64,000 nt of DNA from an uncultured bacterium (GCA_963707485.1 CAVPQS010000080.1:39475-103474), one strand, 5' to 3'. Shown: positions 19,185 through 55,203, counted from the first letter of the stretch. The notes: generated by a model not told the origin, from the letters alone. Numbers and translations are program-made.

Positions 19185-19210
19185 AGGAAGTGGGGGGAAT
19201 CGAACCCCAG
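19185..19210 (-). repeat. Degenerate copy of the ssrA 3' end (distal att of element C)
   Basis: AGGAAGTGGGGGGAATCGAACCCCAG versus TGGAGGTGGGGGGAATCGAACCCCCG at 54845-54870 (3 mismatches in 26). Confidence 0.9.
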
Positions 19211-19274
19211 ACTCGCGTTGCGGGACCAGAGCTTACCCGGCACTGTGTCCAAATTGTGCCCGTTTTTTGTTGAC

Positions 19275-20504
19275 TCATTGATTGTACTTTGACCAGAATG
19301 CGAATTTCCGCTTATGAATGGACAACAGTGTTGCTTTGTAGTTTTCATGCTCCGCGATGATGCCAAGGGTGACAAGCTTTGGTGCGATTTGATCGAGCTT
19401 GCGCAAGTAGCGGATGCCGTGCGAATAGTACTTGGATATTCCCCTGCGTAGAATCGAGTCCAACAGGGCGCGATAGATAATTGTAACTACAAGATGTCTC
19501 TCATGCCGTTCAAATGTTCTTGCCCACGATACGAGATCGGGATAGATTTCTCCATTGATTTGATCACGTCTATCAATCACATAACGCTCAGCTACTCCGA
19601 CGTATTCCGTCTCAATCAGAAAATCGACGTTTGAGTAATTGAGCACGGTGTCTTGTTGAATCAGCTCGATTTCCCCATTCAGAACGTCGTCTTTCTGCTC
19701 CTGACCAACCGCGCTGAGCAACAACGAAAGTGTTTCGGCACTTCGGTACCGTCGAAAAATGCGCCACGCTGCTTGCTCTGCCCGGGACTGGTCCCCGATT
19801 CTTGTGGCAATATTCAGCAATAGGCGGTCTCTCGCGTCAGCCATGACCGTCTCCTCAGGCGGAACCCTTTCAAGCCAGCGGAGTGCGGTAATGGTGTCAC
19901 CAGATTCGAAATACACTTCAGCTATGTCTATGCAGGCCGCGGTCGACAAATCGGGCCACATCGTACGCCGCGCTCTTTCAAACAGCCCTGCATCCTTCAA
20001 TTGGCGGGCAATCATCTCAACGCTGAGGAACCAATGGCGTCTGCGGTATTCGCCTGACTCTTGTAATGCCAGTTCCCAGAATTCATCAGCCATGCGTCTG
20101 AGCCATGGTTCCGTCAGAAAGCTGTTTGCGGCTTCAATCAGAAAATCTCGAACCCCATATTCATCCTGCCGGTATAGACCCAGTATGACGTCATACAGCC
20201 ACCCTTTGTCCTCGCATTGGATGGCGTATCGCACAAAGAAATCCCGGGCCGAATATTTATAAACGTCACCGATTGAACCGTTTGAATCATCTGAATTTCC
20301 GAGCACTGCGCCATCTGTCTCTATGAACTCTCGTATCAGTTCGATTCCGTGCCGCGGATTCTCCACTACACTTTCTATCTCTTCAAGCACTGCTTCCAAC
20401 TCATGCGCGAACGGACCTGATTCACGGTAGTCGATAAACCTCTGCCGGCTCTTCAATGAGGCAAGCCGTCTTTTGACGCTCTTGAGTAGTAGCGCTTCGC
20501 TCAT
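19275..20504 (-). CDS. DUF6880-like helical-repeat protein
   Basis: VKRRLASLKSRQRFIDYRES..NSDDSNGSIGDVY..DEYGVRD..IYRALLDSILRRG.SKYYSHG..YL..H.RK.AFW. Confidence 0.65.
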   Translation of the reverse strand: MSEALLLKSVKRRLASLKSRQRFIDYRESGPFAHELEAVLEEIESVVENPRHGIELIREFIETDGAVLGNSDDSNGSIGDVYKYSARDFFVRYAIQCEDKGWLYDVILGLYRQDEYGVRDFLIEAANSFLTEPWLRRMADEFWELALQESGEYRRRHWFLSVEMIARQLKDAGLFERARRTMWPDLSTAACIDIAEVYFESGDTITALRWLERVPPEETVMADARDRLLLNIATRIGDQSRAEQAAWRIFRRYRSAETLSLLLSAVGQEQKDDVLNGEIELIQQDTVLNYSNVDFLIETEYVGVAERYVIDRRDQINGEIYPDLVSWARTFERHERHLVVTIIYRALLDSILRRGISKYYSHGIRYLRKLDQIAPKLVTLGIIAEHENYKATLLSIHKRKFAFWSKYNQ

Positions 20505-20538
20505 ATAATCTCAATCCTACGATATCAGTGTTGGATAC

Positions 20539-20960
20539 TCAGCCCGTAGCCAAGAGAGCAAGGCATCCCGGCAAGTCGCGAGCAAGCTCCATCGCCTCAG
20601 CTACCTCAGATTCTGTAATTGTCCCAGCGGCATCGTAAGCGACGATTGCTCTCTTCCGGCTAATCGCCTCGAGCGACAGGATCACTTCCGGAGCGGGGTC
20701 AATCGTAGACCTTAGAGACTGGATGGTTCGATAGTGATGGCCCGTCCTCCGGGAATTCGGTACCGGCTCGCGTGAAGAGCAATTGTCGCGCTGCCGAGGC
20801 AGGCATTGTAGGCAATAGCAAGTCCCCAATCGAGGGTGATTTCCTCTTTTGAAGCTTCAGCGATATCACGATCGATTTTGTTAAGCAGGTCCCTGATTTC
20901 CTGGCGACTTGAAGTATGCCTTTTGAGCCAGCCGTTACTTAACCAATCTTGCAAGGTCAT
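20539..20960 (-). pseudogene. HEPN-domain toxin, frameshifted
   Basis: MTLQDWLSNGWLKRH..AIAYNACL..YRIPGG continues in another frame near 20745 as GHHYRTIQSL..RKRAIVAYD; overlaps the end of the MNT gene. Confidence 0.7.
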
Positions 20961-21573
20961 CTTCGTTTCCAACTACAAATAGCTTTTCGGAGCCCAAGAC
21001 GGTGTTGAGAAAGTGGTTCTCGTCCCGAACCTTCTTCGAAAACTCTTTTCTCGAATATAGTGTTGGATTAACTGGCCGCCGCAAGGTTTCTTCAACCGGG
21101 TTGAGAATGGACACCAGTTCTCGAAACGACAGTGAGCCGATTGCCATAACGTCGATGTCGCTCGAACTGCGGTCGGTTCCGCCGGCGATAGAACCATAGA
21201 CCCAAACCACGTCGATATTCTTCTCCGCTATCGGACGGAGCACGTCGCGAATGACATCAGCCACTCCGAATGTCTTTGCAGCAATCGATTTCAGTTCACC
21301 AAATACGGGGCTTGCTGGATTAGCTTGGTAGAATTTCTGAATTCCGATTGACTCCATGTTGAGAATCCCAGCTTCGGTAAGTGACTTCAACTCTCTCTGA
21401 ACAGATCCGGGCGTATCACCCAAGAGTCTCACAGTTTCCCTGAAATAGAATCGCTTATCTGGATTCAGCAAAAACAAAGCAAGCACCTTTCTGCGAATCT
21501 TTGGGAAGAGTGCTTCTCCGATGCCGGATCCGACCCCGAGATTAGTCTCTCGCTTTTTTGCCTTCAATGACAT
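20935..21573 (-). CDS. HTH plus minimal nucleotidyltransferase (MNT) antitoxin
   Basis: N-terminal wHTH (GSVQRELKSLTEAGIL); VYGSIAGGTDRSSSDIDVMAIG (GS..DxD); start uncertain. Confidence 0.85.
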   Translation of the reverse strand: MSLKAKKRETNLGVGSGIGEALFPKIRRKVLALFLLNPDKRFYFRETVRLLGDTPGSVQRELKSLTEAGILNMESIGIQKFYQANPASPVFGELKSIAAKTFGVADVIRDVLRPIAEKNIDVVWVYGSIAGGTDRSSSDIDVMAIGSLSFRELVSILNPVEETLRRPVNPTLYSRKEFSKKVRDENHFLNTVLGSEKLFVVGNEDDLARLVK

Positions 21574-21835
21574 CAGTAACGCATCCGATTCTGAATATGA
21601 ATCAGCCGATACTATTATCGGAACGATTGTACCTAATTCGAGATCACCGGTCAATTACAGAATTCGTATGTGATAGTGATTTTGACCCCGGCTGGCATGT
21701 GACCAAATCGTGACAAGTTTCGTTCCACGTTATCGCTTGTTATTCGCCGTTATTGTTTGGCGGACGGGGGTTCTTGAAATTCGTCCGACTACAGTAGTCG
21801 CTGTACCTGATTGGATAACATAAGCTTAAAATAAT

Positions 21836-21849
21836 TGGAGGTGGGGGGA
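21836..21849 (-). repeat. 14-bp copy of the ssrA 3' end (C/B junction att)
   Basis: TGGAGGTGGGGGGA identical to 54845-54858. Confidence 0.85.
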
Positions 21850-22038
21850 GACGAAAATGGCCATCTTGGTAACTTCTTGACAACCACAGACTTGCAGCGC
21901 AACTAATTGAACGGCAGCACTTTTCAGCTTTTATTTGGTTTTGTTTGCTTCTGGAAAATGAGCCTGTTTTACACGCAAGTTGGCACAAATTTGGCACAAA
22001 CTACATTGGTCAAACTGCCCATTCCAAGCTCATGAAGG

Positions 22039-23406
22039 CTAATATATTTTGAGGAGCTCCTCCAAGGATATTACAATGCCATGTTCTCCTAAGGCCGCTT
22101 CCCGCTTTTTGAACAGGATTGATATTGGCTCACCGGTCTGGCTCTCCTCCCCCTGATGAAGCAACCTATGGCAATTGGGACAGAGCGCCACGACATTGCC
22201 GGGTGCATCCAAACTTACGTCGAACTTGTCTTGGAGCACCATCGGAACCAAATGGTGCGCTTCTACGTAGTTCTTTCCGGTCGCGCGTGATGTAAATGTC
22301 TTGTGTGTAGGATCAAGCATACAAGAAAAATCAGCTTCCACTAGCGCATTCTTCGCTATTCTCGGATCGCGCTTCCAGACTCGGCCGCTTACGTCATTCG
22401 AACTCGGTTTTTGGATGGGGCCGGAGGGTAAGTCGCGGGCTTCCGCAGTCTGGACCTGTGCCTGAAATAGTGATTCGTCGCTATCATCATCATTAGCAGC
22501 ACCGCCAATGAACGACAAGACCTTCTCCACGATGGGTTGTTCAGCACGATCTGCGGCAAACCATACGTTGGACCGTCCCATGCCACCCTTTCCCGTGGGA
22601 ATTTCGATACCGATCTGATCTCTTACACTCTCAGTCAAGAGAGTCTGATTGCCGTCGGTGGTAGTTATGTAGTATCCAAGCTCCTCGCCCCTATAAGTAC
22701 GCTCTGAGCCCTTAGGAGGGATCTGTCGCTTTCTATACACGGTGGCATTCTTGTACCAGCCTACGATCCGGCGGCGTTTTGAGTGAGGCGATTTAGAAAC
22801 GAATATAATAGTAACCCCATCCACCATCTCGTCATCTGCGGACGCGCCAAGACGTTCTATCCTAATCGATCCGTCTTCAAAGTCGTTCTTGGCCACCGGT
22901 TGGACATACCCATATAGTTTCCCTGCAAATGGTCTGAAATTCAAGATCTCGAAGCCGTAGCCGTGTTCATCTACATATCTGCCACCGCCCTCGATTCGAT
23001 CGGATTTATCCGGAGGAATTCCCTGATAGAACTTCATCCAGCCAATGTTGCAGAAGAGCACTTTCTCCGGAGCTAACAGTGGGCTTCTCGTATTCAGTTT
23101 GTCATTCGTCTGCACGACTAACAGCTTCGCATCTTTCGATATCGTAAATCTTAGGTCACAGCTTGAGTAAGCCAGCATCCGTTGGTCATTCAGCAAACTT
23201 CTCAATGCATCGGCATGCGCCATCTCTGATTTGAAAGCAAAATTACGTCTGCTATAAACTTGGCCATGCCAAGACGCTCTATTTCCAAGTTTCTTTATTG
23301 CTGAAACGTCGAGCGTTGCTGATTTACCGTTTGTCACAGCTTCTTCAATCAGAGTTGCAATGGCGTTCCTTATTCCGAGCCAAAATGCATCGTATTTGCT
23401 AGCCAT
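22039..23406 (-). CDS. Multidomain HNH endonuclease (McrA-like C-terminus)
   Basis: RDPRIAKNAL..YVEAHHLVPM..NVVALCPNCHRLLH; central FCNIGWMKFYQG..IVGWYKNATVYR domain. Confidence 0.85.
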   Translation of the reverse strand: MASKYDAFWLGIRNAIATLIEEAVTNGKSATLDVSAIKKLGNRASWHGQVYSRRNFAFKSEMAHADALRSLLNDQRMLAYSSCDLRFTISKDAKLLVVQTNDKLNTRSPLLAPEKVLFCNIGWMKFYQGIPPDKSDRIEGGGRYVDEHGYGFEILNFRPFAGKLYGYVQPVAKNDFEDGSIRIERLGASADDEMVDGVTIIFVSKSPHSKRRRIVGWYKNATVYRKRQIPPKGSERTYRGEELGYYITTTDGNQTLLTESVRDQIGIEIPTGKGGMGRSNVWFAADRAEQPIVEKVLSFIGGAANDDDSDESLFQAQVQTAEARDLPSGPIQKPSSNDVSGRVWKRDPRIAKNALVEADFSCMLDPTHKTFTSRATGKNYVEAHHLVPMVLQDKFDVSLDAPGNVVALCPNCHRLLHQGEESQTGEPISILFKKREAALGEHGIVISLEELLKIY

Positions 23407-23427
23407 TTCCGGACCCCTTTCCTGCTC

Positions 23428-24369
23428 TCATCCGGTATGAGCCGGCGGGTTCATCTTCTTCCACTTGGTATCAGTCCATTCGTATTTGAACGGATAGCCA
23501 AACCCGGCGGCTTGAAGTGGTTTCAACAAAAATTCTCCAATCGCTTTTACTAGCTGCGGAAAAGCAACACCGAAATCTTCAAGATCATTCCGGTTTATGA
23601 ACGCCTTCCACTGATTATTCTTATCCGTGGCGTCGGCAAATTCATGACTCAGGGCAAGAGGTATCTTCTCAGGAATCGGAGTGCCTCTGCGTTCGAATGT
23701 AGCCTTGATCGCTTGAACAAGAGTATCGCCGTCAAACGAAAATGTCTTAGCCAGAATGAAAACATCATAGAAATCTTTCATTCGACTGTTAGCCATTCCC
23801 AAAAACACCATCGACTGCAATTTCTCCGCGATCTGAGTCTCTTTGGGATAAGCTCGGATTCGAGGAGCCGGATATTGAAGCAATACCGGATAGCTGATGA
23901 CATTTGCTTTGGGGGTTACAGCATCACCGAAACCGACATCGATCTGGATTCTGATTTTGGCATTACCGAGAGTTACATTTACTTTCACCCGCTGTCCCGG
24001 GTACTCCTGATTTTCACGAATCTCTTCTATGTCAACGCCGTCGGCATCGAATTCAAGTCCATCCTTCTCGACCTCTGCCCGACATATCTCACTAATTGCT
24101 GCTCCGAGAGTTTCGGCTTCGGCCTCTCCAAAGCCAAGCAAGTCAAGATCACGAGTCGGTCGATGCACTTCACCTATCCAAATAGCCATCAGCATCGCAC
24201 CTTTGAGAATGAATCTGTCGGCGTGTTTAGATTTGGATAGCCGATACAAGAATCGTTCTATCGCATAACGTGTCAGGATTAGATTGAAATCCTCTTTACG
24301 TTCGCGACTGAGATTCAAGAGACGTTGACGAACTGAAGCATCGAGATCTGTAGGCTGTTTCTTGCTCAA
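23428..24369 (-). CDS. abiEii: AbiEii-family nucleotidyltransferase toxin (type IV TA)
   Basis: SVRQRLLN, YAIERFLYRLS, FILKGAML, RPTRDLDL, IDVGFGD, AEKL, NSRMKDFYD; TTG start overlaps the antitoxin stop. Confidence 0.9.
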   Translation of the reverse strand: MSKKQPTDLDASVRQRLLNLSRERKEDFNLILTRYAIERFLYRLSKSKHADRFILKGAMLMAIWIGEVHRPTRDLDLLGFGEAEAETLGAAISEICRAEVEKDGLEFDADGVDIEEIRENQEYPGQRVKVNVTLGNAKIRIQIDVGFGDAVTPKANVISYPVLLQYPAPRIRAYPKETQIAEKLQSMVFLGMANSRMKDFYDVFILAKTFSFDGDTLVQAIKATFERRGTPIPEKIPLALSHEFADATDKNNQWKAFINRNDLEDFGVAFPQLVKAIGEFLLKPLQAAGFGYPFKYEWTDTKWKKMNPPAHTG

Positions 24370-24968
24370 ACTACGGATTCCAAATATGGTTTCATGATAT
24401 TGGCGACCCTGCAGATTTTGGCGTATTTCCACAGATCATCCATCGTGCATTTACTAGTCCGGTGGCAATCGCGCAGTGCTTCAATGGCAACGTCTAGGCC
24501 TATCTTGTTTCTAAATTTGAAACAATCGGCGACGGTCTTAGCCGGATCATATACTCGGACTGTTACACCTTCGATTGTGTGTTGCTCAACTCCCGATGTC
24601 AGCGCTTGCCCTGAGTATCTGGCAATCCGTATAGGAATTCCCAGATCTCTTGGGCTTCGAGCTTTGTGGTCAATAGCCATCCAGATTTCATATGGCGATT
24701 GGGTTGTCAGACCGTGAAACCTAAGCGCAGAGAGCAGGCAGATTATCCCGGATGAAACCTGCTTGCTGGCCTCAGCTAGACTCCTGTTTTCAGACGGTTC
24801 AGTCTCAGGTAAAGTATAAAGTCCTCGTCCAATCCGACGTAGAAGACCCAGGCTATACAGTTCCTGAACATACTTGCGGTGTATACCGTGTTCATCCATG
24901 TCTTTCGGCCTGACGATACCCAGCCGTCTGACAATTCGAATAATCTGATCCGTAGTTTCCGCATTCAT
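24366..24968 (-). CDS. abiEi: AbiEi-family antitoxin and autoregulator
   Basis: RIGRGLY, ICLLSALRFHGLTTQSP, KTVADCFKFRNKIGLDVAIEAL, CRVANIMKPYLE. Confidence 0.9.
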   Translation of the reverse strand: MNAETTDQIIRIVRRLGIVRPKDMDEHGIHRKYVQELYSLGLLRRIGRGLYTLPETEPSENRSLAEASKQVSSGIICLLSALRFHGLTTQSPYEIWMAIDHKARSPRDLGIPIRIARYSGQALTSGVEQHTIEGVTVRVYDPAKTVADCFKFRNKIGLDVAIEALRDCHRTSKCTMDDLWKYAKICRVANIMKPYLESVV

Positions 24969-24989
24969 AATCAATAACAATATATCATG

Positions 24990-25023
24990 ATATGTCGGCA
25001 GATATTAATAACTGCCGACATAT
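24990..25023. promoter_or_regulatory. Inverted-repeat operator upstream of abiEi
   Basis: ATATGTCGGCAG-ATATTAATAA-CTGCCGACATAT, perfect 12-bp arms; AbiEi proteins are known to autoregulate through promoter inverted repeats. Confidence 0.75.
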
Positions 25024-25250
25024 TATACCACACTGAACAACACTGAGCAACAGAATTGCTGTTACTTCCTAGTGATCTTCCGAGCTTCGACCGGGTTATT
25101 CATGATCGTTGTGAGAACAAGAGTGGCACAGAGTGATTCTTGTGAATCATAACTCTGTAGACGATTGCAACTTACGGAATAGCCGAGGAGGTGTGACCAC
25201 CGAACCTGATAAGATCATATCATATTGTACAACAACGACTTACAAACTAT

Positions 25251-25276
25251 TGGAGGTGGGTGGAATCGAACCCCCG
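25251..25276 (-). repeat. 26-bp copy of the ssrA 3' end (B/A junction att)
   Basis: TGGAGGTGGGTGGAATCGAACCCCCG, 1 mismatch to 54845-54870. Confidence 0.93.
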
Positions 25277-25654
25277 ACTCGCTATGCAGGACAAAGGCTT
25301 ACGTGCCACTGTGTCCAAATTGTGACCGTTTTTGGGGGAGCCATCTTAACCAATAAGACCTGAGGGGTCCACAATTGAGTGACCTTAGTACACGGCAGAG
25401 GAGCAAGGAGAACGGTTTCAGATGGCCAGATCTGCACCTCGGCCGCTCGGAGGACTAATCCTTTTTTCAATCGTTTGGGCTATTGTCCGACTGTCGTATC
25501 TCTGTAAATTGAGTCAATGATGGAAAGGAACATCTTGTGACTTGGAAATGACCAGAACGACCTGCGTCGAAACTGCATTCAGCAAAGGGCATTTATCCAG
25601 AACACCAGCCGCCAAGAGCGTACGTATTGGATCCAAAACCAGGAAGGACTCGAC

Positions 25655-25867: not shown

Positions 25868-26056
25868 CGGCGTCATCCTTCAGTGCGCCGTAGACGAGGC
25901 TGGCCGCATCGGTCAACGATTTCGCACTCGTGAAGTCCAAAGTTTGTTGCCGCGACGACCTGGTCCAAGTAGCTCTGGATTAGCAGACGCCGCGTCTGAT
26001 GTCATTTGCTGCCATCAGCGGCGTTGTAGCTATCACAGTTTCGCCAGGAGAACAAA

Positions 26057-26422
26057 ATGCAAGTCCAAGTCAACACTGATCATAATATCGAAGTTTGTGT
26101 AGCGAAGGCTGCTAAGGGCAGTGAAGTAATAGAGACTGCCCTGGCCAGATTAAGCGACCGCATAACGCGGGTGGAGGTCCACTTGAGCGACGTGAACAGT
26201 GACAAAAGCAGCGAGAATGACAAGCGCTGCGTGATAGAAGCCCGTCTTGAACGCCGTCGACCCCTCGCAGTCTCTCACCAGGCGGCGACTTTGGACCAGG
26301 CCGTCGATGGTGCGGTAGAAAAGTTAACCAGGCTGATCGAGAGCACCCTCGGGCGGTCGCGCGATAGAAGGATCCATGAAACTGATCAGATTCCGCCTGA
26401 CGCGGAATTGGGAGATGAGTGA
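26057..26422 (+). CDS. HPF/RaiA-family ribosome-associated protein
   Basis: MQVQVNTDHNI, RITRVEVHLSD, DKRCVIEARL, LDQAVDGAVEKL; AGGAG RBS. Confidence 0.8.
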   Translation: MQVQVNTDHNIEVCVAKAAKGSEVIETALARLSDRITRVEVHLSDVNSDKSSENDKRCVIEARLERRRPLAVSHQAATLDQAVDGAVEKLTRLIESTLGRSRDRRIHETDQIPPDAELGDE

Positions 26423-26999: not shown

Positions 27000-27566
27000 A
27001 TGAATGGAGGCGAGTTCATGAATCACTGCAATCCAAACGCGGCATCCTATTCGAAGAACGCAACTGCAGTAGTCGCCGATGCTGTGGCCGATTATCCTAC
27101 TGCGTCCCATCTGGAGTTGGCCGAAGTGAAAGACCGCTATCTGCGGCTCTCTGCCGAATTCGAGAATTTCAGGAAGCGCACTCGGCGAGACTCAGAGCAA
27201 GCAGCAGCGGCAGAAAAGGAACTGTTCATCCGGGGCTTGCTTCCTGTTCTCGACAATATCGATCGCGCCTTGGCCGCAGGGCAATCCAATTCCTACAACC
27301 CAGAGCAAAGAGGATTGGAAATAACGCTGCAACAGTTGATCCGATTACTCAACGACCACGGCATCGAGGTTATCGAAGATGAAGGTCAGCTTTTCGATCC
27401 ACACTGGCACGAGGCTCTTTCATTGCGACACGATCCCAGCCAGCCCGATAATGTCATACTTGAAGTCGTTCAGCGTGGTTACAGCCATGGCGATAAGGTG
27501 TTTCGTCCTGCTCAGGTCATCGTGAATGACCTGGGAGATTCCCCCGGAGTCAGCCACGCCAGTTGA
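27000..27566 (+). CDS. grpE: Nucleotide exchange factor GrpE
   Basis: [48 protein letters not shown]; start may be 27018. Confidence 0.9.
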
Positions 27567-27686
27567 ATTCAAAGACTACTATGAAGTTCTCGGTGTAGCA
27601 CGCGACGCGAGCGACGAGGAGATCAAGAAGGCCTTCCGGAGTCAGGCACGCAAGTATCATCCTGACGTCGCCAAAGACAAGGCTAG

Positions 27687-29041
27687 CAGTTTGCTGAAAA
27701 ACGGCATCTGGAGTCGATAATTTGCGGTTTCGCTGCTGCGATTTCGTGGATTTCGGATTTTGCGGAGGGAAGTGTGTTGTTTTCCGAGTGTTGTTAGGCT
27801 CAGCGGCCGGCTATCGAACCGGCATCGGCGTCAAGTTCTCTCTGTTTTATCTTCAGACCAGTCCCGGATCCGGTTTGAGTTTTGCCATTCGCAACAGATT
27901 GTAGGCAGCGCCGACCATCTCGGCGGCCAATTGCGTTCGCGCTCGACCTTTGTGACGGGTCTTGCGCAACCCGCCAATCGTTTTCATCCAGCCGAAGATC
28001 TCCTCGATGCGTTTACGCACGCGTTGACTAATCGCGTAGTCCTGGCGTTTCCTGATCCGGGCATCGACCGCCGAGCCGCCCGGACGTCTGTCGTTGGCCG
28101 CGATATGCGGCGCAATCTGCCGTTTCTGCAACATCTCAACAAACCCCTTCGTGTCATACCCCTTGTCACCGGCCAACGTCTTCGGTCGCCGGCGTTTCCT
28201 CGCTTGACGCTTCAACATCTGCTCCGCCGCTGACCACTGCGACTTGGTATCCGCCGCTGTTACACTAATGTCCAGCAACAGTCCATGCCTGTTCTCCATC
28301 AAGGCATGGCCATTGTAATACAGCTTCGCCTCCTTTCCCGAACCCTTCCGATACAACCGGCTCTCCGGATCGGTCGTCGATTGATGCGTCTCATTGCTCC
28401 GCTTCTCGCCGTGAAAGTTTACGTTCGGATTGCCTGGATCATCATCGTCATCAGACCGATCACTCTCCTTGCGCCGAAAACTCTTCAGCGAGGCCCAGGC
28501 CTCAATCAACGTCGAGTCCACCGTAAAATGATCGGCGCTCAGCAATCCCCCGTTCTGCGCTGTCTTCACCACACCATCAAAAAATAGCTTCCCGACCTCA
28601 TGCTCCAGCAGTCGCTGCCGATTCTTGCTGAACACCGTCGCGTCGAAACTGTCCTCGACCTGATTCATGTCCAGAAACCAGCGAAATAACAGATTGTAAT
28701 CCAACTGCTCGCACATCTGGCGCTCGCTGCGCACCGAATACAGCGCCATCAGCAGGAGAGCCTTCAACACCCGCTCCGGCGGAACCGATGGTCGGCCAGT
28801 ATGCGAATACATCGTGTCAAACACCGGCGATAACCGTTTCAGTTCCTGATCCGCCAACTTCTTAATCCTTCGGATCGGATGATCGGCCGGAACCCGCTGT
28901 TCCGGCGTCCACAAACTCAAAAATGTCTCCTGCCGATTCGACTCTCCGCGCATGGCAAACTCCTTCTACGAAAATCCGCCAAACGATAACCCCGCCTCTT
29001 TTACTTTTCAACTACAACAAGTAGAGTTTTTCAGCAAACTG
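27687..29041 (-). mobile_element. IS5-family insertion sequence, full length (1355 bp)
   Basis: Terminal IRs CAGTTTGCTGAAAAAC and GTTTTTCAGCAAACTG; CTAG duplication at 27683-27686 and 29042-29045. Confidence 0.95.
27853..28953 (-). CDS. IS5-family DDE transposase
   Basis: [31 protein letters not shown]; [25 protein letters not shown]. Confidence 0.93.
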   Translation of the reverse strand: MRGESNRQETFLSLWTPEQRVPADHPIRRIKKLADQELKRLSPVFDTMYSHTGRPSVPPERVLKALLLMALYSVRSERQMCEQLDYNLLFRWFLDMNQVEDSFDATVFSKNRQRLLEHEVGKLFFDGVVKTAQNGGLLSADHFTVDSTLIEAWASLKSFRRKESDRSDDDDDPGNPNVNFHGEKRSNETHQSTTDPESRLYRKGSGKEAKLYYNGHALMENRHGLLLDISVTAADTKSQWSAAEQMLKRQARKRRRPKTLAGDKGYDTKGFVEMLQKRQIAPHIAANDRRPGGSAVDARIRKRQDYAISQRVRKRIEEIFGWMKTIGGLRKTRHKGRARTQLAAEMVGAAYNLLRMAKLKPDPGLV

Positions 29042-29873
29042 CTAGTGCGGAAGATAGATTCAAGGAGATCAATGAGGCAAACGAAGTTCTCAGTGACCCT
29101 GATAGGCGTCGAAAATATAATGAGCTGTCGGCGGACTGGAACCATCAGGAACGGCAGTCGGCGCGACAGCAGGAGGGGTTCGGCGGAGGCTCCGGGCAGG
29201 CTTCCGAATTTCATTTTGAGGGCACGGGCTTCAGCGACTTCTTCGAACAGTTTTTTGGCAGCCACAGTCGCTCTTCTGGAGGCTTCGGCCGGACGCACAC
29301 GAATGGCAGGGCAAGCGCACAGAACGGTCAAGACATCGAGGGTGACATTCTGGTAACGCTCGATGAAATCTTGCATGGTTCTACTCGCACGATCGGACTG
29401 CAGCGTGCCGATCCCCGAAGCGGACAGTCGACCGAGGAGACATTGCGGGTGAAAATTCCACCTGGCGTTCGGGAATCACAGCTCATTCGTCTCACGAGCA
29501 AAGGCCAGGAAGGCATTGGCGGTGGCGCGCCAGGAAACTTGTATCTGCGCGTGAAGTTTGCTAAGCATCCCGATTTCCGGGTGCGGGGTGCCGACCTATA
29601 TTACGATTTGGAGGTGACCCCATGGGAAGCGATTTTGGGCGCCATAGTTCACATTCCGAGTCTTGATGGCAAGTTGGCTTTGAAGATTCCGGCAGGTACA
29701 GTGGCTGGTCGACAATTTCGCTTACGCGCGAAAGGTGTGCCTGCGGGCGACGGAATACGAGGCAACCTGTATGCTACTGTGTCCATCCAAGTCCCTTCGC
29801 ATACGACACCTGAAGAGAAGACTTTGTGGGAAGAGTTATCCCATAAATCGACTTTCAACCCGAGGAAGGACTC

Positions 29874-30212: not shown

Positions 30213-30245
30213 TAAGGTGAGACGGAAAGGGATGAACTGAAATTT

Positions 30246-40860: not shown

Positions 40861-40861
40861 A

Positions 40862-44720: not shown

Positions 44721-44738
44721 AGGTTTACTCTTCTTGGC

Positions 44739-45005: not shown

Positions 45006-45029
45006 TGTATCTCCTTGTGTTATTGTAGA

Positions 45030-45731
45030 TCATGCTTCAATGTGTGCTTCGGGTGCGGCTTTGGGCTTGCGGACTCTCGTAGCTGCCGCGATGTAAACCG
45101 CTGCCAAAATGCTGAAGATGTAGGCCTGCACCATGCCAGTGAGCAGACCAAGCATCGTCATAATAATCGGGAAAACAAAAGGCGTAATGGTGAGCAAGAT
45201 ACCGATAATCATCGCGCCGCTCATCATGTTTCCGAATAAACGCACGGCGAGGGCCAGCGTGCGTGAAAGTTCGCCAATAATGTTAAACGGCAGCATGATG
45301 AACGTCGGCTTCACATAGGACTTGAGGTAATTGCCCATCCCTTGCTCCTCGATGCCGAAGAACGGCACGGCCACAAACACGCACAGTGCGAGTGCAGCCG
45401 TGGTCGAGAGCGAGCCGGTCGGCGGCTCGTAGCCGGGAATGACGGTGCAGAGGCTGGCTGCGCCTACGAAGAGGAACAGCGTGCCCAGGAAGCCGAGATA
45501 TTTATGCGGCTGACTCAGGCCCACCTCTTCAATTTGCTTCATGATGCTGGTGACGACAATTTCCAGAAGGTTCTGCCAGCGGGAACGATCCATACCCGTG
45601 GAAAGTTGGCGCGTAATGACTGTTGAACCGAGGGCCAACACGAGCATCAGTCCCCACGTGAACACAATAGTGGCGTTGAGCTTCAGAAAGCCATACTGCC
45701 AGAAGACCATCTCATCGGGAGTAAGATGCAT
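45030..45731 (-). CDS. atpB: N-ATPase a subunit
   Basis: PPTGSLST, ELSRTLALAVRLFGNM, VQAYIFSILAAVY. Confidence 0.93.
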   Translation of the reverse strand: MHLTPDEMVFWQYGFLKLNATIVFTWGLMLVLALGSTVITRQLSTGMDRSRWQNLLEIVVTSIMKQIEEVGLSQPHKYLGFLGTLFLFVGAASLCTVIPGYEPPTGSLSTTAALALCVFVAVPFFGIEEQGMGNYLKSYVKPTFIMLPFNIIGELSRTLALAVRLFGNMMSGAMIIGILLTITPFVFPIIMTMLGLLTGMVQAYIFSILAAVYIAAATRVRKPKAAPEAHIEA

Positions 45732-46032
45732 GGCTGGCCTCCTGTGACGAGTTCGCTGGCTTTTCCGCCAATCGGGTGAAGCGCATCACGATAAGGCGCG
45801 CGATTATAAACCCAAGGAGGCACACCAGCAGCCTCGCCCAATGACCGCGCGCGATAACATAGAAACCTACCAAGGCAACGCTCATTCGCAGCAACAGGCT
45901 GGCGAAGAGCCAAAGTGACGAACGCCTGGACGAAACGACTTTCTGAACTGTCCACCAAAGGCCGCCGAAGAAGATTGCACCGAGCAATGCGCCCGTCACC
46001 AGAGCCAGCATCAAACTCAAAGTTTCATTCAT
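45712..46032 (-). CDS. atpR: N-ATPase AtpR subunit
   Basis: FFGGLWWTV..SLLLR..GFIIAR; position between atpQ and atpB. Confidence 0.8.
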   Translation of the reverse strand: MNETLSLMLALVTGALLGAIFFGGLWWTVQKVVSSRRSSLWLFASLLLRMSVALVGFYVIARGHWARLLVCLLGFIIARLIVMRFTRLAEKPANSSQEASHASYSR

Positions 46033-46355
46033 TAGTATCCTCTTGTTCCTCTCGCATTTCCATGTCTTGCTTACGCACCCAATACCAGGCATTCAAACAG
46101 CCGATGACCAGTCCAATGACCAGCAGCATCAGCGTCCAGGAATAACCTCCTGGATGGCTATTGTCTAGCCAGACACCGAACGCCGCACCGAGCAGTGTTG
46201 GAACCACCACCGACCAGCCGATGAGCCCCATCATGCCCAAACCAAACCAGACGCCGTGCGTGGGGTTGCGCCGCGCCTTGAGCTTTCGTGCCGCCTTCGA
46301 GCCGACCTCCTGACTGAACACATCCCGGTCCTTTGCTCTTCCCATGTCCGATCCT

Positions 46356-46363
<8 letters not shown>
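46025..46363 (-). CDS. atpQ: N-ATPase AtpQ (AtpZ/gene 1) subunit
   Basis: GLGMMGLIGWSVVVPTLLG..GCLNAWYWV. Confidence 0.8.
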
Positions 46364-49656
<3,293 letters not shown>

Positions 49657-49664
<8 letters not shown>

Positions 49665-52047
49665 TGGCGCCCCAAGTCCAATTCCGGATTTCCGGCATGT
49701 CCTGGCCGTGATTGTCGATGTACTGCTTGTGCTCGATCAGCTTGTCGTGGAGCTGCTGCTTCAGGTGAAAGCCCCTGTCGCCGGTCTGCGGCAGGCGGTC
49801 GATGACGTCCATCACGAGGTGGAAGCGGTCCAGATCGTTCAGCACCGTCATGTCGAACGGCGTGGTGATGGTGCCTTCTTCCTTGTAGCCGCGGACGTGG
49901 ATGTTGTCGTGGTTGGTGCGGCGGTAGGTCAGCCGGTGGATCAACCACGGGTAGGCGTGGAAGGCGAATATGACCGGCTTGTCCCTAGTGAACAGCTCGT
50001 CGAAATCCGTGTCGGAGAGCCCATGCGGGTGCTCGGTTTGCGGCTGCAGCTTCATGAGGTCGACAACGTTGACCACCCGGAATTTCAGGTCTGGCAGATG
50101 CTCGCGCATGATGGAGACGGCGGCCAGCGTTTCCAGCGTGGGCACGTCGCCACAGCAGGCCATAACGACATCGGGTTCTTCGCCGGCGTCACTGCCGGCC
50201 CAGTGCCAAATGCCGATACCTTTGGTGCAATGTTTGACGGCGGCGTCCATAGTCAGCCACTGGGGAGCTTGATATTTGCCCGCGACCACGACGTTGACGT
50301 AGTGCTGGCTGCGCAGGCAATGGTCAAAGACGGATAGCAGACAGTTGGCATCTGGCGGCAGATAGATGCGCACGACGGAGGCCTTCTTGTTCACAACGTG
50401 ATCTATGAAACCGGGGCCCTGATGAGTCAGTCCGTTGTGCATCTGTTGCCAGACATGGGAAGCCAGTAGGTAGTTCAGCGACGCGATTTGCCGCCGCCAC
50501 GGCAGCCCCGCTGAGACCTTTAACCACTTAGCGTGTTGGTTGAACATCGAATCCACAATGTGGATGAAAGCTTCATAGCTATTGAACAGCCCGTGCCGGC
50601 CGGTGAGCAGATATCCTTCGAGCCAGCCTTCACACTGGTGTTCGCTCAACATTTCCATGACGCGACCGTCCAGGGCGAGGAATTCGTCGTTGTCCTGCAT
50701 TCGCGCGTCCCACTGCCGATTGGTAACCTCGAATACGGCGCCCAACCGGTCCGAGAGTGTCACGTCGGCACCGAAGATCCGGAAATTGCGCTGCTTCTGG
50801 TTGAGCTTGGCTACGTCGCGCAGGAACTCCCCGAGCACGTGCGTATCGGCAGCCTGAACTGATCCTGGTGATGGCACCTTCACTGCGTAAGTCCTGAAGT
50901 CAGGCATGATGAGGTCGCGCAACAGCAGGCCTCCGTTGGCGTGGGGATTCGCGCCCATTCTTCGCTCGCCCTTCGGCGCGAGATCGGCCAGTTCAGGCAA
51001 GAGACGGCCGCTCTTGTCGAAGAGTTCCTCGGGCTTATAGCTTTTCATCCAGTTCTCAAGCAGCTTGAGATGATCTGGATGCTCAGAATCCACCTGCAGG
51101 GGAATTTGGTGTGCTCGAAAGGTGCCCTCGATTTGCACACCATCGACGACTTTCGGCCCGGTCCAGCCCTTGGGTGATTTAAGGACGATCATGGGCCAGC
51201 GAGGGCGCATCGTGTTGCCGTTGTCGCGGGCTTCGTGCTGGATGCGCTTAATGTCTTCCACCACCGCGTTGAGCGTCGCGGCCATGGCCTCGTGCATCAG
51301 CTCCGGCTCATGCCCCTCGACATAGTACGGCGTCCAGCCGTTGCCGCGCAGCAACTGGTCCAGCTCTTCCGGCTCGATGCGCGCCAGGACGGTCGGATTG
51401 CCAATCTTGTAGCCGTTGAGATGCAGGATCGGCAGCACCGCGCCATCGGTTATCGGATTAAGAAATTTGTTGGTGTGCCATGCTGTAGCCAGCGGACCAG
51501 TTTCCGCCTCGCCGTCACCGATAACGCATGCGACAATCAGTTCCGGGTTGTCGAACACCGCCCCGAAGGCATGGCTGAGCGAGTACCCCAGTTCGCCCCC
51601 CTCGTGAATAGACCCCGGGCACTCCGGTGAAACATGGCTGGGAATCCCACCGGGGAAAGAGAACTGCTTGAAAAGCTTGCGGAGACCGGCTTCATCCTGG
51701 CTGATGTTGAGATAGATCTCGCTGTAGGTACCCTCAAGATAGGTGTTGCCTACCACAGCGGGGCCGCCATGCCCGGGGCCGGAGACGTAGATCATGTCGA
51801 GATCGTACTCTTTAATAACCCTGTTCAAGTGTACATAAATAAAGTTCTGTCCCGGCGTCGTGCCCCAATGCCCGAGCAGCATCAACTTCACGTGCGACAG
51901 CTTCAGCGGCTCCCGAAGCAAAGGATTGTCGCAAAGATAGAGCTGTCCGACCGACAGATAGTTGGCAGCGCGCCAGTAGGCATCCATCTTGTGGAGCAGT
52001 TCCGGGGAGAGGGTATATGTCTTCATGGCTAAATTCCTTTTGTTCAT
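49657..52047 (-). CDS. xfp: Phosphoketolase (XFP)
   Basis: [48 protein letters not shown]; some conserved motifs altered. Confidence 0.92.
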
Positions 52048-52958
52048 GCCGCAACGATAGCATCTGCTCGCAAGGAATGTTCATCAGCTTGCACGGCGCA
52101 CAGACAGGCGCCAAATATGACAATGCACCCGAATAGATAAATGCACAGCAGGAATGCTGTGAACCCGCCGAACACCCCATAGACCGCGTTTGATGTGGCA
52201 AAGTTCTTGAGGTAGATCAGAAATAGACTTTCGGTCACCTGTAAGAGAACTGTGGCACACAGGGCGGCAACCCACACCTGAGCAAATTGCTTGGACCCGC
52301 TCGGAGCCAGCCTATAAAACAAACTCAGGCTGAAAAATACTAGTACCAAGGGAACGATAAAACTTCCGAGTCCATAGACCCAGGAATGGATATTGATCGC
52401 GGGAAGGAGCCATCCTCTCGCGAAATGCATTAGCATCAGCACAGCCATGCCCACAAGGACCGCACTCGCCGTGATGCCGATCTGTACCGCACTCTTCAGC
52501 GGTAGTCGCCACCATTTGGACACTTGTGTCTCCCAGGCACGATTGGTCGCACTTATGAGGCTGGTGAACGATTGTATGCCGACCCAGATCAGGATCAAAA
52601 ACGCGACCGCACCTGCCTGCCCACGACTCTTGACCACACCGTCGATGGTGTTAAGAATGTGGCTCTGCATTTCACCACTAACCGGAACATAGGTTTCCAT
52701 ATGGGCAATGATCTCTTTCGTTGCCCGGTCTCGGTCAACAAAGGCTGAAGCAATGCTGACGGAAAGCACAACCAATGGAAATAGCGAGAAGAACGCATTG
52801 AAGGCAAACGCGCCCGCCCGCTGTTCCCCGTCAATCCGAAGAAACCTCTCGACGGCCAGACAAAGTATCGTCCAGATGCGATGAGCCTCTCGGCTAAGTC
52901 TGCTTGGCCTGCCCGGGGGCGGTGAGGGCTGCGAGCGTATCGTGCTGGCGGCCATCAT
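52044..52958 (-). CDS. YihY/BrkB-family membrane protein
   Basis: [29 protein letters not shown]; start uncertain. Confidence 0.8.
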
Positions 52959-52986
52959 CGCCCCCCGGCCATTTGAGGCGTTTGCG

Positions 52987-53757
52987 TCAACGGAAATGCT
53001 CCTTGGAGGTCGGTTCATCGACCCAGTATCCCAGGAGGTCATAATGTCGATGTAGTCCGGTCTCGTAATCCCGAGTCAGTAGAGACTCCTCCGTGTATTC
53101 CGGTGACTGTCGGATGGTTTTGCGAGAAAGATCGACGAGGACTTTCGACTCGTTCCAACTAACACGCTTGATCCATCGAGGCGAAACCAGGATCTTTTTC
53201 CCTGGCCACCAATTCTCTGTATCGACGATGAGATATCGAATTGCCCACGTCTCGTCATCGATAATGAAATCCTCAACGTGACCAATTTCACCGTCATCAG
53301 CCTGGATGTGATTGCCACTGACAGCGTTAGTGCTTCGCAAATGGGGATCCCAAGCTCTCTCAGTTTGATTGGAGCCTGGCCATTTTGCAGGGTCGCGCAA
53401 GAGATAGGGATTTGATCCCCACATAAGCGGGCCGCCCCAGTAAGTCGGCCAACCATAATACCCATAGTATGCTTCTTCGAATTGTCGCGACACGGGCTTG
53501 TCACTGTCTAAAGATGGGCTGTCCTCAACCTGCTTTTTGGTCAAATCAATGACGATGTGTTGCTCGTTTTCAATGATGGCACCCAGCGCATATGGGGAGA
53601 TCAAAACCTGCCTTCCGGTGAGCCAGCTTCCCGTGTCGGCTATTAGATAGCGAATCGCCCAGTGCTGGTCATCGAAGTAGAACTCTTTGACCTTTCCTAT
53701 TTCCCCATCGAGGCTGTCAAGTCTGTACCCCTTCAGTGTTTTGGCCTTGCATAGCAT
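52987..53757 (-). CDS. Tandem PRC-barrel domain protein
   Basis: Two copies of DGEIG.V..F..DD..WAIRYLI.DT..W..G...L.SP; AAGGA RBS. Confidence 0.85.
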   Translation of the reverse strand: MLCKAKTLKGYRLDSLDGEIGKVKEFYFDDQHWAIRYLIADTGSWLTGRQVLISPYALGAIIENEQHIVIDLTKKQVEDSPSLDSDKPVSRQFEEAYYGYYGWPTYWGGPLMWGSNPYLLRDPAKWPGSNQTERAWDPHLRSTNAVSGNHIQADDGEIGHVEDFIIDDETWAIRYLIVDTENWWPGKKILVSPRWIKRVSWNESKVLVDLSRKTIRQSPEYTEESLLTRDYETGLHRHYDLLGYWVDEPTSKEHFR

Positions 53758-53792
53758 AGAATTCCTTTCGTCTATTTGTTCTTTGTCTTTGT

Positions 53793-54227
53793 TCACCGTT
53801 GTCGCCCGACTGACAGTGCGTTCGAACAATCGGTTTCACCTCGATTTACATGGGTGCAAACACTCCAATGTCGCTGACGAGAGTAGCTTTGGTCATGTCT
53901 CTTCGACTCTGCTTCCAACAGCTCCGGCAATTCATTGAAACGCGAGTTCCCAGCGTTGTCCGCAAGCTCTCGCGTGACCCGCATCTCCCGCGAATGATGG
54001 CGTTCGTTGACGAATCCGGATTTCTTTGCGTAGATGACAAACGCAAGAAACAGCGCTGTGAAAAGGGTCAACAATCCTAGTATGACAGCCCCCAGAGGCG
54101 CTTGGACGGTGGCAACTCCTAAGGAAAGAGTTGCCGGTATCATTATTGCGATCCAATTGAGGGCGATGAAAGCGACCATGACGAAAAGCGCATTTGTCAG
54201 CGTAATTGTGCGACTTTTCATGCTCAT
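53793..54227 (-). CDS. Hypothetical protein with two TM helices
   Basis: AGGAGA RBS; two hydrophobic segments. Confidence 0.45.
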   Translation of the reverse strand: MSMKSRTITLTNALFVMVAFIALNWIAIMIPATLSLGVATVQAPLGAVILGLLTLFTALFLAFVIYAKKSGFVNERHHSREMRVTRELADNAGNSRFNELPELLEAESKRHDQSYSRQRHWSVCTHVNRGETDCSNALSVGRQR

Positions 54228-54503
54228 TCTCCTGGAAACATTATGTGTCTGACCCATAGTAAAGATAACTGCATTGATTGGACTGACAATCGGCCAAAGG
54301 ATTGAAAAGAGATATAGTCCATCGGAGTGAGAGGCTATCGCGGCTTTTTTGGTTGCGCACTGAAGCATTGTTGTTTAGGCCGTTGGGTCGGTGAGAAAAT
54401 GGTCCGTTGCAAAATACTTCTACCTGTATCGGTTCAGCAACAATTGGACACATTAGGGTGTTGAGCTAAGACACGGATTGTGTGATCTTAGCGGAGAGAT
54501 TCC

Positions 54504-54531
54504 CCGGCTCGCTGGGGGGAGAGCGAGCCGG
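54504..54531. other. GC-rich hairpin near the island end
   Basis: CCGGCTCGCT-GGGGGGAG-AGCGAGCCGG, 10-bp perfect stem, no U tract. Confidence 0.5.
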
Positions 54532-54844
54532 CTCCAAGACCTTAACAATTTACCCAAACCTTATCTTAACTCAAGCACCCCTTGTGTCCAGATTTAGCTG
54601 ACGGCGAACAGGCACGATTGCTGCAAAAAGTGAGTCCCGACTTCATCTTGCGTGAAAGTGGTTGTCTAAGTATGGAGTAGATCAACCCTTGTTTGGTGGA
54701 GAGTTTGTGTGACAAAAACGTGACCAGAATGGTCGCACGATATTTTATGTTATTGCATGATATGCGGGGCGGACGGGGGTTTGGGGAATTCGTCCGGCCA
54801 CTGCAGTCGTTGTACTTGATTGAATGACATAGCCTTACAAGAAT

Positions 54845-55203
54845 TGGAGGTGGGGGGAATCGAACCCCCGTCCGAAATAACCAGCAACTAACCGTCTACG
54901 CGCGTGTCCTTTGCATTTATTCTCGCTGATCAGATCGCCGCAAGGCTAAAGCTACCAATCAGCCAGTCTTGCTATTTATTTCGCCCCGCAACCGCCAGAC
55001 CGAGCTACAAGGCTATCCATCATTTATCGACGCCTTGCACAACGCCTAATGGCGGGCTTCGTGCAACGCGGCATGCTTAGTTTAGTTAAGCAGCAATGGC
55101 GTAGTTGTTGCCATTCAATTGGTTTACGCCTGTTTAACGAGACCGGCGCAATCTCGGCGCGCAAGTTAATCCACGTTCATCCCGTCGAAACCAAGTCACC
55201 CCC
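54845..55203 (-). ncRNA. ssrA: tmRNA (359 nt), predicted tag (A)GNNYAIAA
   Basis: 5' GGGGGTGACTTGGTTTCGACGGG; 3' GACGGGGGTTCGATTCCCCCCACCTCCA; G3:U70-type alanine acceptor; tag frame GGC AAC AAC TAC GCC ATT GCT GCT TAA; CCA not encoded. Confidence 0.97.

Follow-up and report, generated by a model that had tools for sequence, protein, structure and literature searches.

A probable accretion array of integrase-less, att-bounded islands at the 3' end of the tmRNA gene of an uncultured bacterium

We analysed a 64,000-nt stretch of DNA from an uncultured bacterium (GCA_963707485.1 CAVPQS010000080.1:39475-103474; hereafter the window), in which three DNA units are stacked next to ssrA, the gene of transfer-messenger RNA (tmRNA). 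The units are very probably att-bounded, integrase-less members of integrase-based families that were stacked by site-specific insertion. The locus as a whole is best explained, with a probability of about 0.6, as an accretion array of non-autonomous islands resembling cis-mobilizable elements (CIMEs). The array would comprise at least three integrative islands, each acquired through site-specific recombination at the ssrA 3' end, and the newest island would be the one adjoining ssrA. Two integrase/att systems, designated Int_A and Int_B, are proposed to have taken part in sequential insertion at this one gene: family A would recombine in a 26-nt core comprising the T-arm and the acceptor 3' strand, and family B would share only the terminal 14 nt of ssrA. 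Units of this kind would depend for any movement on an integrase provided by a helper of their own family or by some other transient source, and would probably move together with their neighbours by accretion. Below, the genome of the window is denoted G000, other G codes stand for genomes of relatives and L codes for loci.

The window has a single tmRNA gene, which is intact, encodes the tag peptide VNQLNGNNYAIAA (ARAGORN) and has its 3' end oriented toward the array. Its terminal 26 nt, present in identical form in ssrA of relatives, define the core repeats:

54842/54845-55203, minus strand: ssrA (tmRNA gene), intact, full length (ARAGORN; Rfam RF00023, 172.4 bits, model 1-374).
54845-54870: att core inside ssrA, 26 nt, T-arm and 3' acceptor strand, reference copy for the repeats.
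25251-25276: displaced core at the distal end of unit 1, 25/26, one mismatch.
21836-21849: truncated core stub, identity block of unit 2, exact 14/14.
19185-19210: outermost recognisable displaced core, 23/26, three mismatches.

Core matches with at most three mismatches number three in the window, while dinucleotide shuffles (n=100) expect 0.00; for a given 14-mer, our own arithmetic yields a chance expectation of ~5e-4 per 64 kb on both strands. Furthermore, the 97-nt surroundings of the 14-nt stub are 81% identical to the DNA left of ssrA. Taken from core start to core start, the unit lengths are 2651 bp (unit 3), 3415 bp (unit 2) and 29594 bp (unit 1). A preliminary description of this DNA had reported the recurrence of the ssrA 3' end at 25251 (25/26), 21836 (14/14) and 19185 (23/26), with units of about 29.6, 3.4 and 2.7 kb, and both the coordinates and the counts are correct. 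Its remarks that the outermost copy is the most decayed (23/26 at 19185 versus 25/26 at 25251) and that the small units are packed with cargo (coding from 19275 to 21654 in unit 3 and from 22039 to 24980 in unit 2) were likewise borne out. What it had not noticed is that the repeats continue past the core into two kinds of flanking arm, and together the repeats and the arms support the tandem accretion array at ssrA that it had proposed. A fourth core candidate at 13319 (TATAGGAAGT, in common with 19182) was rejected: its flank is conserved in G001, G002 and G010, and no arm profile matches there.

Arm profiles for nhmmer were built from relatives alone, with this genome excluded. In the window they match exactly two right and two left arms, at the predicted places; the remaining matches below 0.01 are cross-matches of a motif common to both arm types.

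54703-54844, plus strand: right att arm of family A, unit 1 (nhmmer 54703-54842, E 6.9e-23), with arm-type direct repeat GTGACAAAAACGTGAC at 54709-54724, followed by a GC hairpin (GGCGGACGGGGG...CGTCCGGCC) and then GTACTTGATTGA.
25277-25334, plus strand: left att arm of family A, unit 1 (nhmmer 25275-25334, E 1.4e-16), with arm-type repeat GTGTCCAAATTGTGAC at 25311-25326.
21697-21835, plus strand: right att arm of family A, unit 3 (nhmmer 21697-21834, E 1.9e-18), with arm-type repeat GTGACCAAATCGTGAC at 21699-21714.
19211-19271, plus strand: left att arm of family A, unit 3 (nhmmer 19210-19271, E 2.5e-14), with repeat GTGTCCAAATTGTGCC at 19245-19260.

Since both ends are matched on units 1 and 3, these two units are members of one family (A). 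Their left arms are 80% identical (19182-19278 versus 25248-25344) and their right arms 81% (21759-21855 versus 54768-54864); moreover, the right arm of unit 1 can be aligned with the integrase-adjoining arms of G012 and G016. The arm-type direct repeat, GTGACnAAAnnGTGAC, occurs in both left and right family-A arms. In the right arm, which also has a GC-rich hairpin and a GTAMYTNATTGA box, it is seen in 13 of the 81 distinct junctions that all loci plus unit 3 provide, at positions -134 to -147 from the core, and in the left arm it lies ~35 nt past the core (consensus of 47 distinct left arms). When 14 right arms are aligned, the onset of homology is sharp at the arm-type repeat in integrase-bearing and integrase-less sequences alike, and similarity further inward is seen only between the two integrase-bearing sequences. 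In the reconstructed family-A attP, 140 nt of right arm and 57 nt of left arm enclose the core; it measures ~225 bp, close to the ~250 bp that PMC4383910 states for such elements. The idea that the left arm is a piece of a foreign tmRNA or tRNA was dropped: Rfam in E-value mode gave only a 15-nt T-arm (19194-19208, E 0.034) and ARAGORN made no call.

The integrase that belongs to these arms is encountered in relatives. In G012, G016 and G041 the family-A right arm is located between ssrA and the start codon of Int_A. The G012 enzyme is a 336-aa tyrosine recombinase that starts ~45 nt inside the right-arm repeat and ~180 nt from ssrA (right arm nhmmer 2.4e-22); the G016 integrase, 77% identical to it, occupies the same place; and in the complete chromosome of G041 an integrase 76% identical to that of G012 and 88% to that of G016 is followed by the right arm (5e-23) and ssrA. 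G002 encodes an integrase 58% identical to Int_A near ssrA, in a different arrangement. Judging by its position and conservation, the repeat GTGACnAAAnnGTGAC is a putative arm-type binding site of Int_A, a tyrosine integrase of 336-365 aa. Integrase-less units are also found together with integrase-bearing ones: two such units with both arms lie behind the Int_A-bearing unit in G041, and three lie on the ssrA side of the integrase-bearing unit in G045.

Unit 2 is of another type. The preliminary description had treated all three units as one kind, and in this respect it has to be revised: units 1 and 3 belong to att family A and unit 2 to family B, which opens with DNA unrelated to family A after only 14 nt of core.

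21850-22007, plus strand: left arm of family B, unit 2 (homology to L055/L056), with direct repeat TGGCACAAATTTGGCACAAA at 21981-22000.
24981-25250: right end of unit 2, no arm recognised, half-site TGGCACAGA near 25116.

The family-B repeat, TGGCACAAAnnTGGCACAAA, is unlike that of family A. Repeats of the TGGCACAAA type were found at five places across all loci compared, and in L088 one copy separates the start of an integrase from a copy of the core. This integrase (32% identity), which starts 17 nt from the repeat and ~110 nt from the core copy, is a candidate for Int_B. Truncated core stubs followed by a non-A left arm are present in G001, G011 (two sites), L055 and L085. Similarity links the left arm of G001 to that of G011, and the left arm of unit 2 to those of L055 and L056. 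An origin of unit 2 as a deletion remnant of family A was set aside, as related truncated-core junctions have their own left arm and repeat in other genomes. The right end of unit 2 includes one hairpin region with a match in L020. Several loci depart from the common layout. The displaced core of L085 contains a 29-nt insertion. In two more distant relatives, the ssrA 3' end of L086 has an apparent ~40-nt GC-rich insertion in the T-loop region (ATCGAA...ACCCCGTCCG), and L024 starts with a comparable GC-rich stretch after ATCGAA. L046 (G017:C4:1262000-1281999) has two ssrA-like copies ~3.2 kb apart, the second spanning ~317 nt of the gene, which suggests an element with a crossover further 5' in ssrA.

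The genome of the window is a bin of 112 contigs, 97.5% complete with 2.4% contamination. A six-frame search of the whole genome with hidden Markov models for tyrosine (PF00589) and serine (PF00239) recombinases gave no match at E<=1 on the window's contig, and Pfam analysis of the 29 open reading frames (ORFs) of the units found one DDE transposase (of two copies of one insertion sequence, IS) and otherwise no recombinase. Similarly, tblastn with four family integrases, including Int_A and Int_B, against the window returned noise (20-23 bits, E 0.7-8, within known genes). Since no integrase of either family is present in the units or in any contig, the units are non-autonomous. Elsewhere in the genome, four PF00589 genes exceed the cut-off, two of them Xer-like, one located by tRNA-Leu and one frameshifted by tRNA-Thr; a fifth match falls below the cut-off (E 0.21), there is one serine recombinase (PF00239), and all of these are on other contigs. 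The Int_A and Int_B queries match only the two Xer-like, the tRNA-Leu and the broken tRNA-Thr integrases (21-29% identity, >100 aa). The tRNA-Leu enzyme (C89:927-2195, a 388-aa frame beside tRNA-Leu(CAA)) and a ~52-nt displaced tRNA-Leu fragment on C35:3750-3800 are an ordinary integrase-bearing island, whose target has 18 nt of T-arm in common with ssrA. As the trans-acting enzyme it found no support: its identity to the four queries is 21-29%, the best being Int_B, and its att is the tRNA-Leu piece on C35. At C52:115779-117105, tRNA-Thr(TGT) is followed by an integrase in two frames (172 + 161 aa), and ~200 nt beyond it there is a family-A-like repeat, GTCACAATTTGATGAC (plus strand, nhmmer E 0.0014). 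The arrangement has the look of a defective relative of these elements at a different tRNA gene; being broken and ~25% identical to Int_A, the integrase is not a credible helper. The missing integrase could be encoded in unassembled DNA of the bin.

Integrase-less units of the same construction are widespread. In public genomes, 49 stretches show the core with the left arm behind it; they are mostly titled as metagenome-assembled genomes (MAGs) of Candidatus Zixiibacteriota, with uncultured Ignavibacteria or Ignavibacteriales, Planctomycetales, KSB1 and Bacteroidetes among the other titles; the window itself appears to come from a Zixibacteria-type phylum-level group. In the first 20 sources, each core copy located outside ssrA is followed by a family-A left arm (11/11), and a further 11 copies are in ssrA genes. 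For a census, boundaries were taken from core matches and arm profiles (several are nhmmer matches only), and PF00589 matches were placed on them. It comprises 27 bounded units in 9 arrays, with a PF00589 match in 2/27 and none in 25/27:

G000: 3 bounded units, 0 with PF00589.
G001: 3 bounded units, 0 with PF00589.
G002: 9 bounded units, 1 with PF00589.
G003: 1 bounded unit, 0 with PF00589.
G004: 1 bounded unit, 0 with PF00589.
G008: 2 bounded units, 0 with PF00589.
G013: 2 bounded units of 1.1-1.2 kb each, 0 with PF00589.
G041: 3 bounded units, 1 with PF00589.
G045: 3 bounded units, 0 with PF00589.

Integrase-bearing units with one end (G012, G016 and the distal unit of G045) are omitted from these counts. 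We also searched 1.28 kb inside 18 right arms with the four integrases for remnants. Both positive controls were recovered (E=0), and 0/16 integrase-less right-arm flanks had a match at E<0.05; three weak matches (E 0.058-0.76) were discarded as being in the wrong place or on the wrong strand.

Strain-level variation was examined in assembled contigs only (runs X1-X4; uncovered parts of the stretch in X3 and X4 are uninformative). Runs X1 and X2 come from two samples, and their contigs span both junctions, at 21849 and at 25251, with the same joins as the window. The same study also supplied X3, a third sample, whose copy of unit 3 shows 27 differences over 2791 aligned letters. One of its contigs (2326 nt) matches 21593-21849 with one difference and then continues for 30 letters, of which 29 agree with the ssrA body inside of the core. 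Thus, in a sibling strain ~99% identical over unit 3, this unit adjoins ssrA directly, the 33 kb that units 1 and 2 occupy being missing, and the junction shows that the 14-nt stub is what remains of a full core. Repeats common to the two assembly paths are at most 17 nt long, below what we take to be the 31-letter assembly word of those run contigs, and an assembly artefact is therefore unlikely. X4, from another study and with a small share, gave contigs of 150-400 nt with 90-97% identity to unit 2 cargo, too short for context. Furthermore, in G004 a 97%-identical variant contig runs from a unit end to ssrA, skipping a 6361-bp integrase-less unit exactly between core copies. The same unit is common to G002, G003 and G004 (79-86% identity) and lies further from ssrA in the other genomes because later units inserted beside ssrA, which fits the order with the newest unit next to ssrA. 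Unit content therefore varies both between species and between ~99%-identical strains, as the preliminary description had anticipated. The absence of a recombinase or its remnant, claimed there, agrees with the six-frame and tblastn searches of the window, and related ends with other cargo, which it had told us to look for, are common in relatives. Of the outcomes it had named beforehand as refuting, integrase remnants or invariant content with no related ends, none occurred.

The cargo was annotated with Pfam on the ORFs between 19275 and 54368, and defence genes were called with PADLOC:

19275-21654, minus strand: unit 3 cargo (Pfam, PADLOC).
19275-20504, minus strand: DUF6880 protein (unit 3).
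20539-20829, minus strand: PDC-M05B, 96 aa (unit 3; PADLOC 4e-15).
20935-21654, minus strand: PDC-M05A, Pol-beta-type nucleotidyltransferase (unit 3; PADLOC 5.9e-70).
22039-24980, minus strand: unit 2 cargo (Pfam, PADLOC; among the PADLOC calls, mREase_IV-like 4.2e-08).
22039-23406, minus strand: DUF7664-HNH nuclease (unit 2).
23428-24432, minus strand: AbiEii (unit 2; PADLOC 3.9e-117).
24366-24980, minus strand: AbiEi (unit 2; PADLOC 2.2e-84).
25335-54702: unit 1 cargo, G+C 0.52-0.62 (Pfam).
26057-26422: HPF (unit 1).
27000-27566: GrpE (unit 1).
27683-29045: IS copy (unit 1).
29371-29877: DnaJ C-terminal fragment (unit 1).
30661-37656 and 38911-40533: NdvB-like GH94 glucan synthase, split by an IS (unit 1).
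37642-39004: IS copy (unit 1).
41357-48465: N-ATPase operon including AtpR (unit 1).
48312-49664: DUF2254 (unit 1).
49657-52047: phosphoketolase (unit 1).
52044-53042: BrkB-family protein (unit 1).
52987-53829: PRC-barrel protein (unit 1).
53793-54368: 191-aa ORF (unit 1).

Every gene of units 2 and 3 is on the ssrA strand, and PDC-M05A/B of unit 3 is a candidate defence pair. In X3 the copy of PDC-M05B has a 24-nt deletion and a 1-nt insertion (at 20556 and 20744), so the gene may be broken in the sibling strain. The G+C content of unit 1 reaches 0.62, versus ~0.51 in the flanks. Its two IS copies (DDE transposase, DUF772/DDE_Tnp_1) are in direct orientation and 96.6% identical over 1364 nt; the copy at 27683-29045 lies between GrpE and the DnaJ C-terminal fragment, with no DnaK left. 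A partial copy of the same IS is found near 400-1335, and related copies occur in G011 and a public Zixibacteria contig. ARAGORN called a 92-nt tRNA-Gly(GCC) at 33726-33817 inside the 2331-aa glucan synthase ORF, which is probably false, Rfam giving no match at the gathering score. Within the non-coding gap that separates the cargo of unit 1 from its right arm, ~100 nt at 54504-54611 contain a strong hairpin (CCGGCTCGCT...AGCGAGCCGG); this element recurs at 85-95% identity on contigs C105 and C68 of this genome and in G010, G011 and G013, and is possibly a short mobile repeat or else a terminator that these places have in common.

Cargo homology is absent from the arrays of G001, G002, G003, G010 and G011, and the phosphoketolase block of unit 1 was not found in 12 other genomes of the genus. 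It is present in other families of the phylum at 66-79% nucleotide identity (32/285 genomes with any match). The phosphoketolase protein is 82-83% identical in G176 and G054, which belong to two other families, and in both it is encoded alongside HPF inside integrase-less ssrA units with family-A arms, accompanied by a homologue of the PRC protein in G054 and of the 191-aa ORF in G176 (the core coordinates of G176 equal those of G041). For comparison, G003, of the same genus, has 85-88% identical versions of two chromosomal genes that flank the array; in G176/G054 these genes are 34-36% identical or unmatched, and possible paralogues make this a rough yardstick only.

Further out, flank homology with G001, G002 and G010 stops near 13350, and the accessory DNA from there to the outermost core (13355-19184, no arm match) encodes a POT transporter, a PD40/amidohydrolase protein of 1097 aa, a 78-aa ORF and a 218-aa ORF. 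The 1097-aa protein is found in 1/12 other genomes of the genus, on another contig. The segment is possibly an older unit without a surviving att, in which case the array may reach further out. On the other side, the genes right of ssrA are a 187-aa ORF (55345-55908) and trehalose genes. The ORF, the immediate upstream neighbour of ssrA, has no Pfam match and no DNA-level conservation with the closest relative, G003; smpB is not adjacent to ssrA in this genome.

The identity of the units as stacked, att-bounded elements could be doubted if the repeats were due to chance or to a chimaeric assembly, and a bin of 112 contigs with 2.4% contamination leaves some room for the latter. Yet the shuffles produce no core matches, contigs from two different samples bridge 21849 and 25251 where the repeats of the assembly paths are at most 17 nt, and the same architecture is present in many genomes; such an artefact is hardly conceivable. 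Whether the units were inserted, or can still be moved, through an integrase from outside the unit is a separate question, on which the sequences leave us evenly divided. An outside enzyme would account for integrase remnants being missing altogether, for conservation breaking off sharply at the outer arm site and for the very small size of some units. It is further suggested by units 1 and 2 having been gained recently, or else lost from the sibling strain, by the 14-nt junction, which is short for homologous recombination, and by the stacking of integrase-less units with integrase-bearing ones in G041 and G045. Several observations weigh against the accretion of non-autonomous islands as we describe it. 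The assembled contigs, the only read material available, revealed neither an excision product nor a circle junction, and integrase activity was likewise not observed. No cognate integrase exists in G000, where Int_A is unmatched at E<=1e-20, and among 21 family genomes a close Int_A (at least 59% identity) occurs in only 3, some match being present in 14. Most arrays would thus currently be stranded, which fits inert relics too. The right-arm repeat is missing at 68/81 junctions, where the left arm is often kept, and the right arm of unit 2 was not recognised, with a half-site only and no homologue of the L088 right arm. Unit 1 is decaying, its IS copies having split the glucan synthase gene and truncated the GrpE-DnaJ cluster. 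A right arm is absent from the unit that the G004 variant has lost, and the precise loss of this unit may need only homologous recombination between 26-nt repeats; strain-level presence and absence can also result from homologous replacement through the flanks. Finally, the census is biased, as arrays were located through core or left-arm matches.

Several of these points are what one would expect if all units had arrived with an integrase of their own, those that kept it had excised and vanished, and those that lost it had been trapped, strain differences arising by homologous recombination through 26-nt repeats or flanks with no integrase acting in trans. The scarcity of cognate integrases, the IS-mediated decay of unit 1 and the loss in the G004 variant all agree with such a ratchet; so do the missing right-arm repeats, provided that integrase deletions often remove the arm, and the 79-86% identity of the G004 unit across three genomes is consistent with vertical descent. 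By contrast, it does not readily explain why no integrase remnant is found in the window or in any of the 16 right-arm flanks, why homology in 12 integrase-less right arms ends exactly at the outer arm-type site, or why the G013 units, only 1.1-1.2 kb long, have clean ends. Moreover, units 1 and 2 differ between strains ~1% apart, leaving little time for the traceless loss of two integrases; the 21849 junction has 14 nt in common with ssrA, short for a homologous deletion; and related cargo is found in integrase-less, arm-bounded ssrA units of three families. We therefore regard trapped relics as the less likely account, although one to be taken seriously. The preliminary description had gone further and likened the locus to an integron. 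A fixed capture site in ssrA at which a resident integrase shuffles promoterless defence and stress cassettes would agree with the G002 array of 9 units with one integrase, and with units 2 and 3 being rich in defence pairs whose genes all lie on the ssrA strand. However, in G000 the site has no integrase to its left or its right and, where one is present elsewhere, it lies within a unit and would be displaced outward by the next insertion, as in G045. The sites have the core-plus-arm structure of lambda-type integrases and are not attC hairpins; units reach 30-50 kb, use both strands and have their own IS elements; and a hairpin in each right arm separates ssrA from the cargo. With no resident integrase, no attC-type sites and units that are multi-gene islands, the integron analogy in this form was abandoned as very improbable.

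Within the preferred reading, accretion of non-autonomous islands, a bolder version can be formulated, which we consider speculative and rather improbable: ssrA in Zixibacteria would be a standing accretion platform on which cargo modules without an integrase, delimited by a minimal att site of ~225 bp, are the normal transferable form; a rare, itinerant tyrosine integrase borne by a few helpers would insert, excise and reshuffle them, singly or in blocks, with two integrase/att systems at one gene. If true, the modules would be functional counterparts of integron cassettes, with several genes each, and would rely on lambda-type, arm-dependent recombination. Independently of it, the locus illustrates how a soil bacterium from a poorly known, uncultured phylum acquires genes for defence (AbiE, PDC-M05, HNH nuclease) and for stress (N-ATPase, phosphoketolase, HPF, chaperone parts) and keeps them at one site. 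It also allows two att/integrase systems to be defined from sequence, with putative binding motifs GTGACCAAATTGTGAC (Int_A) and TGGCACAAAnnTGGCACAAA (Int_B). If mobilisation of the units in trans is real, Int_A and its att would form a compact site-specific system directed at a universally conserved gene. Programs that expect an integrase per island would miss nearly all such units, and arrays of this type are probably under-counted in MAGs.

Among known systems, the units can be compared with CIMEs. Pavlovic and colleagues reportedly described, in 2004, CIMEs and the tandem accretion of ICESt1-type elements in Streptococcus, and excision and mobilisation of streptococcal CIMEs by an incoming integrative and conjugative element are said to have been shown experimentally. 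Like CIMEs, the units have attL/attR related to those of an integrase-bearing element, lack recombination and transfer genes and stand in tandem with such elements or beside them. Both arms of units 1 and 3 match profiles that include G012, G016 and G041; in unit 2 the left arm, of family B, is the only one recognised. No recombination, conjugation or mobilisation module was detected on the unit ORFs by Pfam and PADLOC (no separate search for relaxases or type IV secretion systems was made). With att sites kept and a recombination module absent, the units resemble cis-mobilizable elements; unlike the streptococcal ones, they are known from sequence alone, and this genome has no helper. The array is also one-sided like that of integrons, grows at one recombination site and stores adaptive genes. 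It differs in having no intI beside the site, no attC/attI and no common promoter, its units of up to 30 kb containing 3 to >20 genes and ending in core-plus-arm sites with direct repeats.

According to Hudson et al. 2015 (PMC4383910), Islander recognises an island by an intact target gene and a displaced 3' fragment, and requires an integrase for each tandem island. The study counted a T-stem crossover class, found ssrA to be the most enriched target of all, and recorded only 4 arrays of at least 3 islands among 3919 islands. The units described here share the intact target, the displaced 3' fragment in direct orientation and a crossover in the T-stem region. They are also foreign in the sense used there, being sporadic in relatives, with units 1 and 2 absent from the sibling and G+C up to 0.62. 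As none of them contains an integrase, all three would be filtered out. Our literature search found no description of ssrA island arrays in Zixibacteria. The close published precedent is Dehalococcoides, and integrase-less tandem ssrA islands are thus not a new idea. There, as stated in McMurdie et al. 2011 (PMC3146451), tandem islands downstream of single-copy ssrA are bounded by 20-bp direct repeats of its 3' end and rank among the main sources of diversity between strains. An integration module is present in 16 of the 31 islands; the other 15, which lack one, were proposed to be cis-mobilizable and moved with their neighbours by accretion. The array of the window is likewise a tandem of islands bounded by repeats of the ssrA 3' end, of 26 or 14 nt in place of 20 bp. 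However, the Dehalococcoides islands use the serine recombinases DsiA/DsiB in a syntenic module; here PF00239 occurs once in the genome, on another contig, the ssrA-adjacent integrases of relatives are PF00589 proteins, and the family integrase is a tyrosine enzyme with arm-type sites. The present arrays further differ in their higher integrase-less share (25/27), in the occurrence of two att families in a single array, and in phylum and cargo.

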